Notes: a model not told the origin generated them from the sequence alone. A stretch of 52,556 nucleotides of DNA from Candidatus Saccharimonadota bacterium (GCA_020428015.1 JAGQNQ010000002.1:1-52556); one strand, 5' to 3'. Shown: positions 11,583 through 49,482, numbered from the stretch's first letter. Numbers and translations: made by a program.

Positions 11583-11658
11583 TGGTGGGGGTACCTGGAC
11601 TTGAACCAGGGACCAATCGGTTATGAGCCGACTGCTCTAACCACTGAGCTATACCCCC
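11583..11658 (-). tRNA. tRNA with CAU anticodon, probably tRNA-Ile2 (lysidine-dependent)
   Basis: Minus strand reads GGGGGTATAGCTCAGTGGTTAGAGCAGTCGGCTCATAACCGATTGGTCCCTGGTTCAAGTCCAGGTACCCCCACCA. It folds into a clean cloverleaf with an encoded CCA. From memory, the D-arm, variable region and T-arm closely resemble E. coli ileX, so the Ile2 versus Met assignment is tentative. Confidence 0.9.
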
Positions 11659-16733: not shown

Positions 16734-16782
16734 GGGTAGGACTCGCCCACATTCTGCGGGCCTGAAAGTAGCGGGGGTAGGA
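16734..16782 (-). repeat. two permuted fragments of the tRNA-fMet 3' end flanking a 22-nt hairpin module
   Basis: Minus strand reads TCCTACCCCCGCTAC-TTTCAGGCCCGCAGAATGTGGG-CGAGTCCTACCC. The same 22-nt module occurs next to the Met-tRNA 3' copy at 24404-24425. Confidence 0.6.
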
Positions 16783-16912
16783 ATATAACTTCGCTGCAGA
16801 GCAGCTTAGTATATAATCCGCCCATTTTACGCCTTCGGCTAGGGGGATTATCGTACCTTCGCTCTCCGCCAGCTGGCGGATCGCTATACGGTTCTCGCCC
16901 TGCGCCGATACA

Positions 16913-16941
16913 AGAAAAAACAGCCACGATGTGTGACTGTC
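16913..16941 (-). terminator. rho-independent terminator after repeat unit 2
   Basis: Minus strand reads ACAGTCAC-ACATC-GTGGCTGT followed by TTTTTT. Confidence 0.6.
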
Positions 16942-16947
16942 TTTTCT

Positions 16948-17087
16948 TGGTAGCGGGGGTAGGACTCGACTATGAATGTTCGCTCGGCAACATGCGTAAC
17001 GCATGCTCGCTCAGCCAAGCAAGGATTCCTCAATATGCCACTGGCATATTTCGCCTATCGGTTCTCGTCCAACACCGAAACATGAAA
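16948..17087 (-). repeat. tRNA-fMet-3'-end-terminated repeat unit 2
   Basis: Positions 16948-16969 are identical to the tRNA 3' end at 17118-17139 (tggtagcgggggtaggactcga). The body carries the GGCGAA-hairpin-TGAG-nnn-TCCTTGCTTGGCTGAGC module, which is also present at the tRNA-Lys locus. Confidence 0.7.
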
Positions 17088-17111
17088 AAGGCCCTACACA
17101 AGGTAGGGCTC
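17084..17111 (-). terminator. rho-independent terminator of tRNA-fMet
   Basis: Minus strand reads GCCCTAC-CTTGT-GTAGGGC followed by CTTTTTC. Confidence 0.7.
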
Positions 17112-17117
17112 TTTTCA

Positions 17118-17192
17118 TGGTAGCGGGGGTAGGACTCGAACCTACGACCTTGTGGTTATGAGCCACACGAGCTGCCTCTGCTCCACCCCGCG
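17118..17192 (-). tRNA. initiator tRNA-fMet (CAU)
   Basis: Minus strand reads CGCGGGGTGGAGCAGAGGCAGCTCGTGTGGCTCATAACCACAAGGTCGTAGGTTCGAGTCCTACCCCCGCTACCA. It has the 1:72 C-U mismatch and a CGCGGGG acceptor, as in bacterial initiators. CCA is encoded. Confidence 0.92.
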
Positions 17193-23533: not shown

Positions 23534-23730
23534 CTGTGTATAGTTACTTTCCTCTTAATATCTTTGCAGATCGACCAGTTTAGCGAGGATGTGTAACGTT
23601 GATAGTTTCTCTGTGTACTCTTCACTCATTTATACTCTTGCAAGCTCTATTATCCCACAAAATGCAAAAATCAACTAATTTTTTCACGAATAAATAACAG
23701 AGGAGGATAAGCAGCACTATAAATATACTA

Positions 23731-23766: not shown

Positions 23767-24340
23767 AGTTGATTAAAAAACAAAAAATCAACAAAAACAA
23801 AAATTAAATCAAAGGAACGAACGAAAATGTAAACGTCATTCAAAAAACGTTACACGGTTCCTACGAACCAAAAGGCTGCGCAGCCATCAAGTCTACACCT
23901 TATTTCGGTCGGAACGAGCGATTTTTTCCCACACTTTTCATCATATAAAAAAGTGCAAAAAACAAAAAATTGCTCGTAAACCCATCAAAATCTTTGGGGA
24001 AAAGTGAGAAAAATTGAAGCTTGAAACCAGAGTAAGGTCTATGCGATACTAGGTGAGTCATAGACAAAAACAAAAAAATCAAAAAAGCACCTGTAACAAA
24101 TGTTAGTTGCGTGCACTAAAACAAATAGAAAGGAGTAGCTCTTTAAGCTCTAATTTCTTAAAAAGGAAAAAGAGCTGGGCGAATAACCTATATGAGTTAC
24201 GAACGAGAAGAATCAAAGAGTCTTTTGGTCAAAATTTATGACCGTATCTTTGACAACTAAGATAAACTAGAGCAATCTAGAACAGGAAAAGAACTTCTTC
24301 GGATTAAAAGGTCAGTCCCTTCCGAAGAAGTTTTTATTTT
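23767..24340 (+). ncRNA. candidate ~570-nt A-rich, hairpin-rich non-coding transcript of unknown family
   Basis: It is bounded by the consensus promoter and by a terminator (aacttcttcgga 24292-24303 pairing with tccgaagaagtt 24321-24332, then a T-run). The longest ATG ORF I can find on this strand is 22 codons. At least six stem-loops are separated by CAAAAAACAAAAAAT-like tracts. Confidence 0.35.
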
Positions 24341-24350
24341 TATCAAGAAT

Positions 24351-24536
24351 TAAAAATCCCATCATGGGATGAGATTATTATTTTGGTAGCAGGACCGAGA
24401 TTTTCCCACATTCTGCGGGCCCGAAACTTCATCTTTGCAAACAAGTTTGCAAGAGAAGGTTTCCTTGCGAAAGTTCACTGAACTTTCTCACTCGTGACCC
24501 TATGCCGCGCTCAAATACCGAATACTAATATCAAAA
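24351..24536 (-). repeat. 186-nt unit: a 133-nt structured body plus a 53-nt perfect copy of the tRNA-Met 3' end and terminator
   Basis: Positions 24351-24403 are identical to 24537-24589. The body contains the hairpins GAAAGTTCA-G-TGAACTTTC, TTGCAAAC-TT-GTTTGCAA and CCCGCA-GAA-TGTGGG. Confidence 0.7.
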
Positions 24537-24569
24537 TAAAAATCCCATCATGGGATGAGATTATTATTT

Positions 24570-24646
24570 TGGTAGCAGGACCGAGATTTGAACTCGGGAC
24601 CTCAGGCTTATGAGTCCTGCGCTCTAACCAACTGAGCTATCCTGCC
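24570..24646 (-). tRNA. tRNA with CAU anticodon, probably elongator tRNA-Met
   Basis: Minus strand reads GGCAGGATAGCTCAGTTGGTTAGAGCGCAGGACTCATAAGCCTGAGGTCCCGAGTTCAAATCTCGGTCCTGCTACCA. From memory, the D-arm is identical to E. coli elongator Met, so the Met versus Ile2 call is tentative. Confidence 0.9.
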
Positions 24647-24697
24647 GTGCTTGAGGGACAATTATAACAGATATGAGGAACGTTTCCTAGGGGCGGC

Positions 24698-25312
24698 TCA
24701 ATCTGCTTTATCAGTTTTAAACCAGTCGTCGTGGGCAAGAATCTGCTCACGGAAAACGTGCCAGATTTCGTTAACTTCTTTGCTTGGCGCTGTCTTTTCA
24801 TCTTTCAGTTGTATGACTTCTGAGCGTAGAATGTCGTACTTTTTCCATGTCTTGCCATTACTTAAAATTTGGAGCATCATTGGCGTTATCTTATCTAGGG
24901 CTTTGACAAACACTGCTTCCGGATCTTTTTGCTCCTCGTATTCTTCGATAGTATCTGTCATGTCTGAGAAATCCGGCCATTCACTTTTTAGCTGGTTTAA
25001 AGCCTCAGCTTCACGCTCATCTTTTGTGGCTTGCTGCTCTGCTGTTCGACCTATTGCCATAACATCACCAGCATGAATTTCTACCATGTCGTGCATGAGT
25101 GCATAGCGAATAACTTTATCACGATCTAGATGCGGGAACGATCCGCACAAATACCAGGCAAGAATCGCCAGATTGTAGCTGTGCTCCGTATCAGTTTCCT
25201 TTCGGTCCGTATGTTTGCCATCGGGCATATAAATGAGTCGCTCAATTTCAGAAAAGTTAACAAGTAGGTCCTGCAAATCTAAAAGTCTTTTGGCGTGTCT
25301 CTCTGGTTTCAC
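24698..25312 (-). CDS. HD-domain phosphohydrolase (YfbR-like 5'-nucleotidase family)
   Basis: ETDTEHSYNLAILAWYL...ALMHDMVEIHAGD contains the HD motif. I shortened the start to the GTG at 25312 to avoid overlapping tilS. The longest ORF reaches 25393. Confidence 0.75.
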   Translation of the reverse strand: MKPERHAKRLLDLQDLLVNFSEIERLIYMPDGKHTDRKETDTEHSYNLAILAWYLCGSFPHLDRDKVIRYALMHDMVEIHAGDVMAIGRTAEQQATKDEREAEALNQLKSEWPDFSDMTDTIEEYEEQKDPEAVFVKALDKITPMMLQILSNGKTWKKYDILRSEVIQLKDEKTAPSKEVNEIWHVFREQILAHDDWFKTDKAD

Positions 25313-49221: not shown

Positions 49222-49298
49222 GGGACCATAGCTCAGCTGGTTAGAGCACCTGCCTTTTAAGCAGGGTGTCCTGGGTTCAAGTCCCAGTGGTCCCTCCA
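49222..49298 (+). tRNA. tRNA-Lys (UUU)
   Basis: GGGACCATAGCTCAGCTGGTTAGAGCACCTGCCTTTTAAGCAGGGTGTCCTGGGTTCAAGTCCCAGTGGTCCCTCCA. It folds into a clean cloverleaf with an encoded CCA. Confidence 0.95.
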
Positions 49299-49299
49299 A

Positions 49300-49482
49300 A
49301 GAATGGCCACCCTTCAGGGGTGGTTTTTCTTTGGATTGTCTCCTGAAACTTACCTAAAAGGGCACCTTGAGTGTCCTGCTGGCGAAGAAGTTCTGCGAAC
49401 TTCTGAGTTTTCCTTGCTTGGCCGAGCATATGCTTTAGCTTTTTGCGAGCAGAAAAGGCGCAAGTCCCAGTGGTCCCTCCAA
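49300..49482 (+). repeat. 183-nt non-coding unit ending in a 22-nt perfect copy of the tRNA-Lys 3' end
   Basis: Positions 49461-49482 equal 49278-49299. It contains a terminator (49305-49329) and the GGCGAA-hairpin-TGAG-nnn-TCCTTGCTTGGCCGAGC module (49381-49428) shared with the fMet array. Confidence 0.7.

Follow-up and report, generated by a model that had tools for sequence, protein, structure and literature searches.

A family of small structured elements adjoining tRNA 3' ends in Candidatus Saccharibacteria and Burkholderiales

The stretch of DNA analysed here (the window) comprises 52,556 nucleotides (nt) from Candidatus Saccharimonadota bacterium (GCA_020428015.1, JAGQNQ010000002.1:1-52556). 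Directly downstream of its tRNA-Met(CAU) gene, between positions 24351 and 24646, lies a short unit in which an insert with three hairpins is followed by a second copy of the tRNA 3' end and of its terminator. Here we present the anatomy of this unit, its homologues behind other tRNA genes, and the possible explanations for them. Sequence comparison establishes that the unit is one of many small, structured elements that together form a family associated with the 3' ends of tRNAs. The family is apparently undescribed: full-text literature searches turned up no account of such elements, and one paper on tRNA gene fragments is about archaeal integration scars.

All features of the unit lie on the minus strand and are given in tRNA-sense order. 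The intact tRNA-Met(CAU), with encoded CCA, occupies 24570-24646 (ARAGORN and the Rfam tRNA model, 68.7 bits). The proximal copy of a 53-nt repeat (24537-24589) holds tRNA positions 57-76 and a further 33 nt with terminator hairpin 1 (24541-24562). It is followed by a left arm, L (24505-24533), a degenerate inverted copy of the tRNA 3' region that was read from the sequence and is present in homologous units too; its sequence is TGATATTAGTATTCGGTATTTGAGCGCGG, to be compared with TGGTAGCAGGACCGAGATTTGAACTCGG for the end of tRNA-Met in reverse complement. Next comes A' (24490-24500, GGGTCACGAGT), in which the variable loop, the T-stem 5' strand and T54 of the tRNA are repeated as a short direct copy; the corresponding stretch of tRNA-Met is AGGTCCCGAGT. 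The core then begins with hairpin P1 (24466-24490), set in a conserved UGAGA...CGCA frame, and hairpin P2 (24423-24464), a long 42-nt stem with a CUUG tip, both delimited by a covariance model and by covariation; the match of the core to this model spans 24398-24498 with 102 bits. The junction module GGCCCGCAGAATGTGGG (24405-24421) contains hairpin P3 (24405-24420), with a conserved G.U wobble and a GAA loop. The distal repeat copy (24351-24403) closes the unit with R, again tRNA positions 57-76 (24384-24403), and terminator hairpin 2 (24355-24376). The closing pair of P3 is normally made with C56 of the tRNA copy that comes next. Because A replaces C56 in the window (24404), the repeat measures 20+33 nt here and not 21+33 nt. 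The insert body between the repeats is 133 nt long and contains no open reading frame (ORF), and the whole unit measures 186 bp.

A first-pass annotation of the window had described the perfect 53-nt identity of 24351-24403 and 24537-24589, which both a repeat search and a reading of the sequence bear out; the similarity is wider than the perfect part, extending over 56 nt with one mismatch (24348-24403 versus 24534-24589). The content that it assigned to the repeat, namely 20 nt of tRNA 3' end and 33 nt of terminator, also proved correct: the tRNA part runs from A57 to A76, and the 33 nt past it contain an intrinsic-terminator-like hairpin with a T run in each copy. The three hairpins that it placed in the insert body are all real, but the one given as TTGCAAAC-TT-GTTTGCAA is only the tip of the 42-nt P2. 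A 22-nt junction module does recur, as proposed, at 16746-16767 behind the initiator-type tRNA-Met (tRNA-fMet), the two 22-nt copies being one base apart. The window has two copies of its 17-mer GGCCCGCAGAATGTGGG, both minus-strand (24405-24421 and 16746-16762), whereas 100 shuffles gave no occurrence even with two mismatches permitted. Both 17-mers adjoin a local tRNA fragment that starts in the T loop.

An exact search with the 17-mer, considering one genome per species (185,579 genomes, 596 Gb), yielded at least 118 loci. About 70 chance matches are expected in 596 Gb by our own arithmetic, and about half of the matches listed were single occurrences in unrelated, mostly coding sequence (e.g., Nonomuraea, Chitinophagaceae). 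Among the matches listed, about 37 loci came from metagenome-assembled genomes of Candidatus Saccharibacteria/Patescibacteria and about 17 from Burkholderiales (Herbaspirillum, Massilia, Actimicrobium, Oxalobacteraceae and relatives). In both groups CGAGTCC, CAAGTCC or CGAATCC opens a tract directly after the module that ends in CCA, and an intact same-strand tRNA, as called by ARAGORN, ends 78-190 nt upstream. The tract is the last 21 nt of this upstream tRNA, starting at C56. A search of the metagenomes of the Joint Genome Institute with GGCCCGCAGAATGTGGGCRA returned 81 loci, about 68 of them with the same architecture, and added the isoacceptors Ile, Leu-CAA/CAG, Pro-GGG and Ser-GGA. The architecture is now known behind at least 17 tRNA isoacceptors in Candidatus Saccharibacteria and Burkholderiales (identities Lys, Pro, Trp, Leu, His, Met, fMet, Ile, Val, Arg, Ser, Glu and Asp), and the two phyla have the P2-P3 junction and the identical 17-mer in common.

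Chance matches aside, nearly all of the 17-mers adjoin the 3' half of a tRNA, starting from C56. Departures from this pattern are a few truncated 3' halves, an insertion into a D loop (L106; L followed by a number denotes a retrieved locus) and L100, whose flank has no clear tRNA end. In its 17-mer form the module is not, then, a generic repeat of the repetitive extragenic palindromic (REP) type at non-tRNA sites, which the first-pass annotation had named as the finding that would speak against it; non-tRNA sequence does follow a minority of covariance-model matches, in which the P3 hairpin is a variant one. The architecture recurs in more than 100 independent assemblies, which excludes an assembly artefact. 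The common mobile or recombinogenic element that had been proposed from the same module at the T-loop halves of two tRNAs gains support from these searches.

The covariance model, built from 37 Saccharibacteria cores, produced 126 matches in 89 loci, many of them without the exact 17-mer. Regarding the 109 distinct full-length cores, a CCA-ending tract follows in 71, and an intact same-strand tRNA lies directly upstream in 56, representing 14 isoacceptors. In 40 of these 56 the tract matches the last 21 nt of the upstream tRNA with at most one mismatch, the median spacing being 166 nt; the remaining full cores stand second or third in an array, run into a contig end or have decayed. Bystander tRNAs, i.e., those retrieved solely through their nearness to a searched module, also have units in many cases: about 40% of them in the Saccharibacteria loci are accompanied by a downstream copy of their 3' end at +150-180 nt, examples being Arg-UCU (L099), Val (L114) and Met (L106).

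The units are small (about 95-190 nt), have no ORF, lie directly downstream of a tRNA and are always in the orientation of that tRNA. Read in the tRNA sense, a Saccharibacteria unit consists of the tRNA up to its CCA, a terminator hairpin with T run, L, a short loop, A', the core, R and usually another terminator. L, which opens with TGG or TGA, corresponds in degenerate form to the reverse complement of the tRNA, from the CCA back through the T arm, A' is a direct copy of the variable loop, the T-stem 5' strand and T54, and R is a direct copy of the tRNA from C56 to CCA. The core in between is ordered as UGAGA, hairpin P1, CGCAAG, the long hairpin P2, G(G) and hairpin P3. Because C56, the first nucleotide of R, closes P3, the junction sits within a helix. 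Burkholderiales units are shorter and form a three-way junction of a closing helix, P2 and P3, in which the 5' strand of the closing helix complements the first 9 nt of R. Where the T loop reads CGAGT in place of CGAAT (L036 included), the left strand changes from TTCG to CTCG and pairing is kept; the left strand is therefore a complement of R and not a direct copy of the T loop. A terminator between tRNA and unit is usual in Saccharibacteria, and several Burkholderiales loci have none (L036, L115). No promoter-like site was found within the window unit, which is flanked by terminators, and terminator 1 and the left arm lie too close together for a promoter to fit.

RNAalifold, applied to the 37 Saccharibacteria cores, predicted P1, P2 and P3, with compensatory changes in 19 of the 28 pairs. 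In the core alignment (119 distinct copies, and fitted to the covariance model, which limits how far the pair statistics can be pressed), 96.7% of the paired cells hold standard pairs, compared with 74.7% in shuffles. Changes on both sides occur in 24 of the 28 core pairs, and the covariation score is 0.55, as against 0.158 for shuffles and at most 0.093 when the partners are slid. P3 covaries too (CG/GC, CG/UA and AU/GC/CG/UA), and its fifth pair is G.U in 113 of the 119 distinct copies. The folding strand is the tRNA-sense strand, because this G.U would become an A.C mismatch on the other one. Compensatory changes are likewise maintained in the Burkholderiales junction. The window copy on its own folds no better than shuffles (z = -0.98, not significant); the evidence for structure is the covariation across homologues, the window copy alone being unexceptional. 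At the level of sequence, the pairing, the compensatory changes and the retention of G.U indicate that selection acts on the folded tRNA-sense strand.

A duplication of 21-90 nt is always present. Its left edge is constant, at C56, 21 nt before the tRNA end, in essentially every locus. The right edge varies: it lies 0-2 nt past CCA in most Saccharibacteria loci, at +4 in L036, where the unit stands between the tRNA and the tRNA's native terminator, at +20 in L115, at +33 in the window, and at +69 in L084, where the repeat stops in a hairpin loop. In loci whose perfect repeat goes no further than CCA, a relationship between the two terminators can often still be recognised (L122, L029), and the 53-nt repeat of the window can therefore be regarded as a young or homogenised example of the general pattern. 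Past the distal terminator another left-arm start is often found (TTGATA in the window, TGGATAG in L122). Two element-free tRNA-Met genes (L212 4246-4300, L213 3970-4030) have TGGTAGCTAC, the reverse complement of their own 3' end, directly past the terminator, the motif in L212 being TGGTAGC. It follows that either remnants of older units persist or an inverted 3'-end segment pre-exists; in L212 and L213 this segment may predate the core or may remain from a lost unit.

Core subtypes are independent of tRNA identity. The P2 subtype of the window is found nearly identical at Leu-GAG (L114) and Lys-UUU (L122) in other genomes, and the P1 of the window is common to the tRNA-Met of L108, whose P2 belongs to another subtype. 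Arrays mix unit families, with the most intact unit beside the tRNA and truncated units in distal position (tRNA-fMet of the window, L152, L178 and L179). In L152, L178 and L179 (tRNA-fMet and tRNA-Lys) the tRNA-proximal unit has an unrelated interior and joins the tRNA copy at about T60, not at C56; such T60-type families keep the combination of an inverted arm and a direct copy. Presence differs between lineages: tRNA-His and tRNA-Arg have units in L099 and none in L068, and core and copy are both missing from the tRNA-Met of L212 and L213. Some cores lie inside tRNA sequence. In L106 (1-180, minus strand) an 88-nt core is placed like an intron within the D loop of a tRNA-Glu(CUC) gene that is complete in all other respects and possesses a promoter-like region of its own; the contig ends just past this gene, and a second intact copy is possible. 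In L083, L025 and L090 a degenerate but nearly complete tRNA copy lies upstream of the intact gene and contains the core in its T loop.

We tentatively favour, with a confidence that comes close to even without reaching it, a reading of the units as non-autonomous mobile cassettes specific for tRNA 3' ends, which would recombine via the shared 3'-end segment, regenerate the tRNA and accumulate in arrays. Such a cassette would enter beside or within the 3' part of its cognate tRNA gene, and its insertion through the shared segment would leave the tRNA intact and displace older cassettes outward, giving rise to the arrays. The folded tRNA-sense strand, either as RNA or as single-stranded DNA, would be the form recognised by a trans-acting machinery. 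This reading draws on the fixed C56 junction, the copy statistics, the occurrence of the P2-P3 junction and the 17-mer in two phyla, core subtypes that cut across tRNA identity, mixed arrays with truncated distal units, differences in presence, the constant left and variable right edge of the repeat, the strong selection on structure and the missing room for a promoter. Mobility, the route of recombination, the trans-acting enzyme and the choice between RNA and DNA are the parts of this reading that we infer.

Several observations weigh against a mobile cassette. Within a single genome the copies have diverged considerably, and units are found at the same tRNA in different species, so that long retention, possibly with a function for the host, fits as well as mobility does. 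A G.U wobble that hardly ever varies is typical of functional RNAs more than of DNA sites, and the reading does not account for the complementary left arm. A' and R of L020 match one another (T stem CTGGG/CCCAG) but not the neighbouring tRNA (GTGGG/CCCAC), so a distal copy need not be the displaced native 3' end. A clean empty site in a near-identical strain was not obtained. The 17-mer had chance matches alone in IMG/VR, and BLAST searches of phage and plasmid collections returned no match and no larger autonomous relative. No integrase was present among 19 window ORFs scanned against Pfam, a set that includes all ORFs beside the three unit-bearing tRNAs and leaves out about 36 further ORFs of at least 110 amino acids. 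Nor does a recombinase, transposase, nuclease or reverse transcriptase recur near the units in the clusters of neighbouring ORFs; all-against-all clustering of the ORFs from 54 loci grouped housekeeping genes in tRNA synteny alone (RuvB, RNase Y, FolD, sortase).

Other searches of the neighbourhood gave similar results. An intI-like neighbour was not found among the neighbouring ORFs, and a recombinase-sized gene does not recur between tRNA and core among the approximately 125 true element loci; in a few longer-spaced loci (L038, L048, L083) ORFs do lie between tRNA and unit. A pattern search of metagenomes found no empty allele of the window locus, and exact-protein searches found no match for four genes flanking it. 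Homologues of the HD-domain protein of the window with 68-74% identity occur in a different gene order, and an element-free tRNA-Met was retrieved with them.

Much of the evidence could also be read in terms of RNA. The units might be a structured non-coding RNA that the host retains and co-transcribes with the tRNA, by read-through or as an operon, with a tRNA-like 3' end (helix plus CCA) that serves maturation and stability; it would act as a mimic, decoy or guide in the handling of tRNA 3' ends, and its copies would have arisen by duplication and ordinary recombination. The covariation is of the bona fide RNA kind, with G.U kept in 113 of 119 copies while the neighbouring pairs covary, the fold works on the tRNA-sense strand alone, and the orientation is always that of the tRNA. 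A terminator stands after the copy as it does after a tRNA gene; none separates tRNA and unit in several Burkholderiales loci (L036, L115); P3 stacks straight on the closing helix, much as the T arm and the acceptor stem do in a tRNA; the copy tracks the sequence of its own tRNA across species; and the units are kept in genomes of about 1 Mb. We nevertheless consider such a retained RNA, the foremost rival of the mobile cassette, rather unlikely. In Saccharibacteria the tRNA and the unit are usually separated by a strong terminator, with no visible promoter; the distribution is patchy, with units at about 40% of bystander tRNAs and differences between related lineages; and the heterogeneous, decaying arrays look selfish rather than functional. 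Occurrence in two distant phyla would moreover require horizontal transfer, and the window copy lacks C56 and has a poorly paired left arm. Closely related, and about as unlikely, is the proposal that the unit encodes a new class of RNA, a hairpin junction with an invariant G.U fused to a 21-nt tRNA tail, which would either guide its own insertion at T-loop position 55/56 or mimic or decoy tRNA 3' ends. In the former case it would be a bacterial, protein-less homing element of a guide-RNA type or resembling short interspersed nuclear elements (SINEs); in the latter, its targets could be tRNA-end-modifying toxins, processing enzymes or recombinases.

A SINE-like mechanism, in which a read-through transcript of core plus tRNA tail anneals by this tail to the nicked T loop of a tRNA gene (position 55/56) and serves as the template for a DNA copy, would make the tRNA-derived copy a target-site duplication with one fixed and one variable edge. 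The observed edges, fixed at C56 on the left and variable on the right, have the pattern of target-primed insertion, and many copies end exactly at CCA or at a terminator, both natural 3' ends of RNA. The element is also promoterless and always downstream of a strongly transcribed gene, and a copy made in this way would automatically be cognate to its new target. We judge this improbable all the same, as no reverse transcriptase is seen among the ORFs around the units, some right edges are not RNA ends (L084 in a hairpin loop, L115 at +20), and the left arm and A', which are cognate to the tRNA as well, are not produced by the model; to our knowledge, there is no bacterial precedent besides group II introns. 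A direct repeat of 17-25 nt of a tRNA 3' end is, on the other hand, the classical footprint of P4-type integration, and arrays at tRNA genes are typical of successive integrations, so the units could be inert scars, attL/attR remnants of larger deleted prophages or islands that integrated into tRNA genes by tyrosine integrases of the T-loop or 3'-end class. The uniform size and order in more than 100 loci of two phyla, the compensatory substitutions maintained in three hairpins, the absence of any integrase or cargo remnant between the repeats of unit-sized loci and the failure to find matching phage or plasmid ends make this very improbable. The lowest probability of all is assigned to a purely local origin, i.e., template switching at the terminator and T-arm palindromes of each locus without transfer between loci. 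The terminator palindrome often does continue into the 3' end of the tRNA and the inverted copy of that end (L122, L029, L099), the element-free tRNA-Met of L212 already has TGGTAGC past its terminator, and small palindromic hairpins recur in pseudo-tRNA loops (L090). Local events cannot, however, yield an identical 17-mer with a homologous P2-P3 junction at about 17 tRNAs in two phyla, or core subtypes common to unrelated tRNA loci. Template switching is contradicted for the core and may still account for the inverted left arm.

By analogy, the closest functional parallels of the mobile cassette that we favour would be tRNA-targeting integrative elements and ORF-less integron cassettes, yet it lacks defining features of both. 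With the former (P4-like and T-loop-class tyrosine-integrase islands and prophages, and CIMEs, their cis-mobilizable derivatives that have no integrase) it shares an intact tRNA, a flanking direct repeat of the 3' end from the T loop and the formation of arrays by successive insertions at a tRNA. It differs in measuring just 95-190 nt, with no integrase, no cargo and no autonomous relative found, in an interior that is a covarying hairpin junction and not a set of protein-binding arm sites, and in always including a segment complementary to the tRNA 3' end and having a variable right repeat edge. With integron attC cassettes and the folded attP(+) of CTX-phi the units have in common that structure is conserved above sequence, that one strand folds better, that heterogeneous arrays lie by a fixed site and that the junction falls in the 3' arm of a hairpin; ORF-less cassettes also exist there. 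However, the units contain no R'' (RYYYAAC) or R' (GTTRRRY) boxes, and the T loop GTTCGAG misfits GTTRRRY, the junction reading GTGGG|CGAGT in the element and GGTT|CGAGT in the tRNA. In contrast to integron and dif systems, no integron integrase is nearby, and the target is a tRNA gene, not attI or dif; P3 resembles the XerC arm of dif weakly, with 8 of 11 positions matched by eye, and the resemblance stops short of the XerD arm.

Miniature derivatives of IS200/IS605 (palindrome-associated transposable elements, PATEs), REP sequences and their paired form REPIN, and omega RNAs are likewise small, non-coding, hairpin-bearing and strand-specific, and the units also resemble an RNA made of a scaffold and a 3' guide in that a conserved scaffold hairpin runs straight into about 20 nt of flank. 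The elements of this group, of which PATEs insert 3' of a short target, have no target duplication and have end hairpins that are alike, whereas here a duplication is present and P1 and P3 are unrelated in sequence. A gene for TnpA, RAYT or TnpB would be expected in the genome for this group, and none was seen near the units; no Rfam model of IS605 or omega RNA matches them. A guide identical to the intact neighbouring tRNA gene would, moreover, be self-targeting. SINEs derived from tRNA and other target-primed retroelements share the dependence on a tRNA promoter or on read-through and the duplication with one fixed and one variable edge; the units differ in their bacterial host, in that no reverse transcriptase was found near them, in not deriving from a whole tRNA and in their complementary left arm.

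A number of more specific identities were considered and set aside. At gathering thresholds, Rfam 15 gave tRNAs alone in the window and in 5 Saccharibacteria and 8 Burkholderiales loci, and at E<=10 it gave noise alone on 24300-24700, which rules out a known RNA family. A transfer-messenger RNA or permuted tRNA is ruled out, as ARAGORN finds none, and an attP of phage or plasmid origin has no match in the phage, plasmid or viral collections. For a self-cleaving ribozyme (hammerhead, hepatitis delta virus-like or other cores) the strands at the junction lack the necessary length, and Rfam has no match; for an archaeal-type bulge-helix-bulge intron the two junctions are not mutually paired; and for a retroviral-type primer-binding site the complementarity of the left arm to the acceptor end is too degenerate. 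Only the half resembling an XerC arm matches an Xer/dif site, and the junction is offset from the GTTC target of IS91.

tRNA genes are classical landing sites of mobile DNA, and the known users of these sites are kilobase-sized and carry their own integrase. The units would be a minimal, gene-less passenger of about 100-190 nt that reaches the same T-loop spot, and there is a substantial chance that they are categorically new, beyond the known tRNA-gene-specific insertions with 3'-end repeats. They combine an elaborate fold common to ultra-small episymbionts (Saccharibacteria) and free-living Burkholderiales with the decoration of a large fraction of the tRNA genes in genomes of about 1 Mb that are under strong deletion pressure. 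Any of the readings, be it a folded-DNA cassette, RNA-mediated homing or a mimic of tRNA tails, would imply unrecognised machinery acting on tRNA genes or their 3' ends. The units also account for many of the "partial tRNA" fragments and contig breaks in assemblies of these lineages. The question is directly testable because cultured hosts exist (Herbaspirillum, Massilia).

The window contains four tRNA genes according to ARAGORN and Rfam, and units lie behind three of them. A further tRNA-Met (11583-11658, minus strand) has no unit behind it. The tRNA-fMet (17118-17192, minus strand) is followed by an array of three units of different families (16734-17117, minus strand), in which truncation grows with the distance from the tRNA: unit 1 has a different core and a full R (16948-16968), the R of unit 2 is truncated (16768-16782), and nothing is left of unit 3 but the 22-nt module (16746-16767) and a truncated R (16734-16745). 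Unit 2 also contains the small palindrome TCCGCCAGCTGGCGGA (16868-16890), which is found again in the anticodon loop of a pseudo-tRNA-Trp in L090 (approximately 100-120). Behind tRNA-Lys(UUU) (49222-49298, plus strand) there is a unit with a variant core (49299-49481, plus strand), composed of a terminator, a left arm starting at TGGAT, the core (49375-49467), R (49461-49481) and a second terminator. Its R equals the last 21 nt of tRNA-Lys, from C56, and its core is made up of GGCGAAGAAGTTCTGCGAACTTCTGAG, a long hairpin and AAAAGGCG; a similar core is present in the tRNA-proximal unit of the fMet array (17023-17061).

Two further arrangements were seen among the retrieved loci. A core subfamily in which P3 is GGTCGCGGAACGTGACC, with the G.U wobble kept, lies 50-60 nt upstream of tRNA-Pro(UGG) in several species (L010 1016-1115, L068 3820-3921, L205 1129-1229 and L083 2222-2322), and tRNA-Pro therefore has cores on both sides. 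The units of the Burkholderiales loci L030, L036, L063, L115 and L135 are located within or beside tandemly duplicated tRNA genes, arranged as Ser-Ser, Asp-Asp or Ala-Glu-Glu-unit-Ala-Glu, which suggests that the 3'-end copies are linked with the duplication of tRNA genes.

The closest available relative of the window is GCA_020428065.1 (Candidatus Saccharibacteria), with an HD-domain protein 99% identical to that of the window and contigs 92-96% identical to it. A cyanobacterial origin of the window, which the RRM protein had suggested, is rejected on the strength of this 99% match and because HIP1 shows no enrichment. In the genome of the relative a TerC-family gene of about 1 kb, which the window lacks, stands between the unit and the gene for the RRM protein (L001 762-1792, compared with 23683-23714 of the window), and the contigs break on both sides of the tRNA-Met unit.

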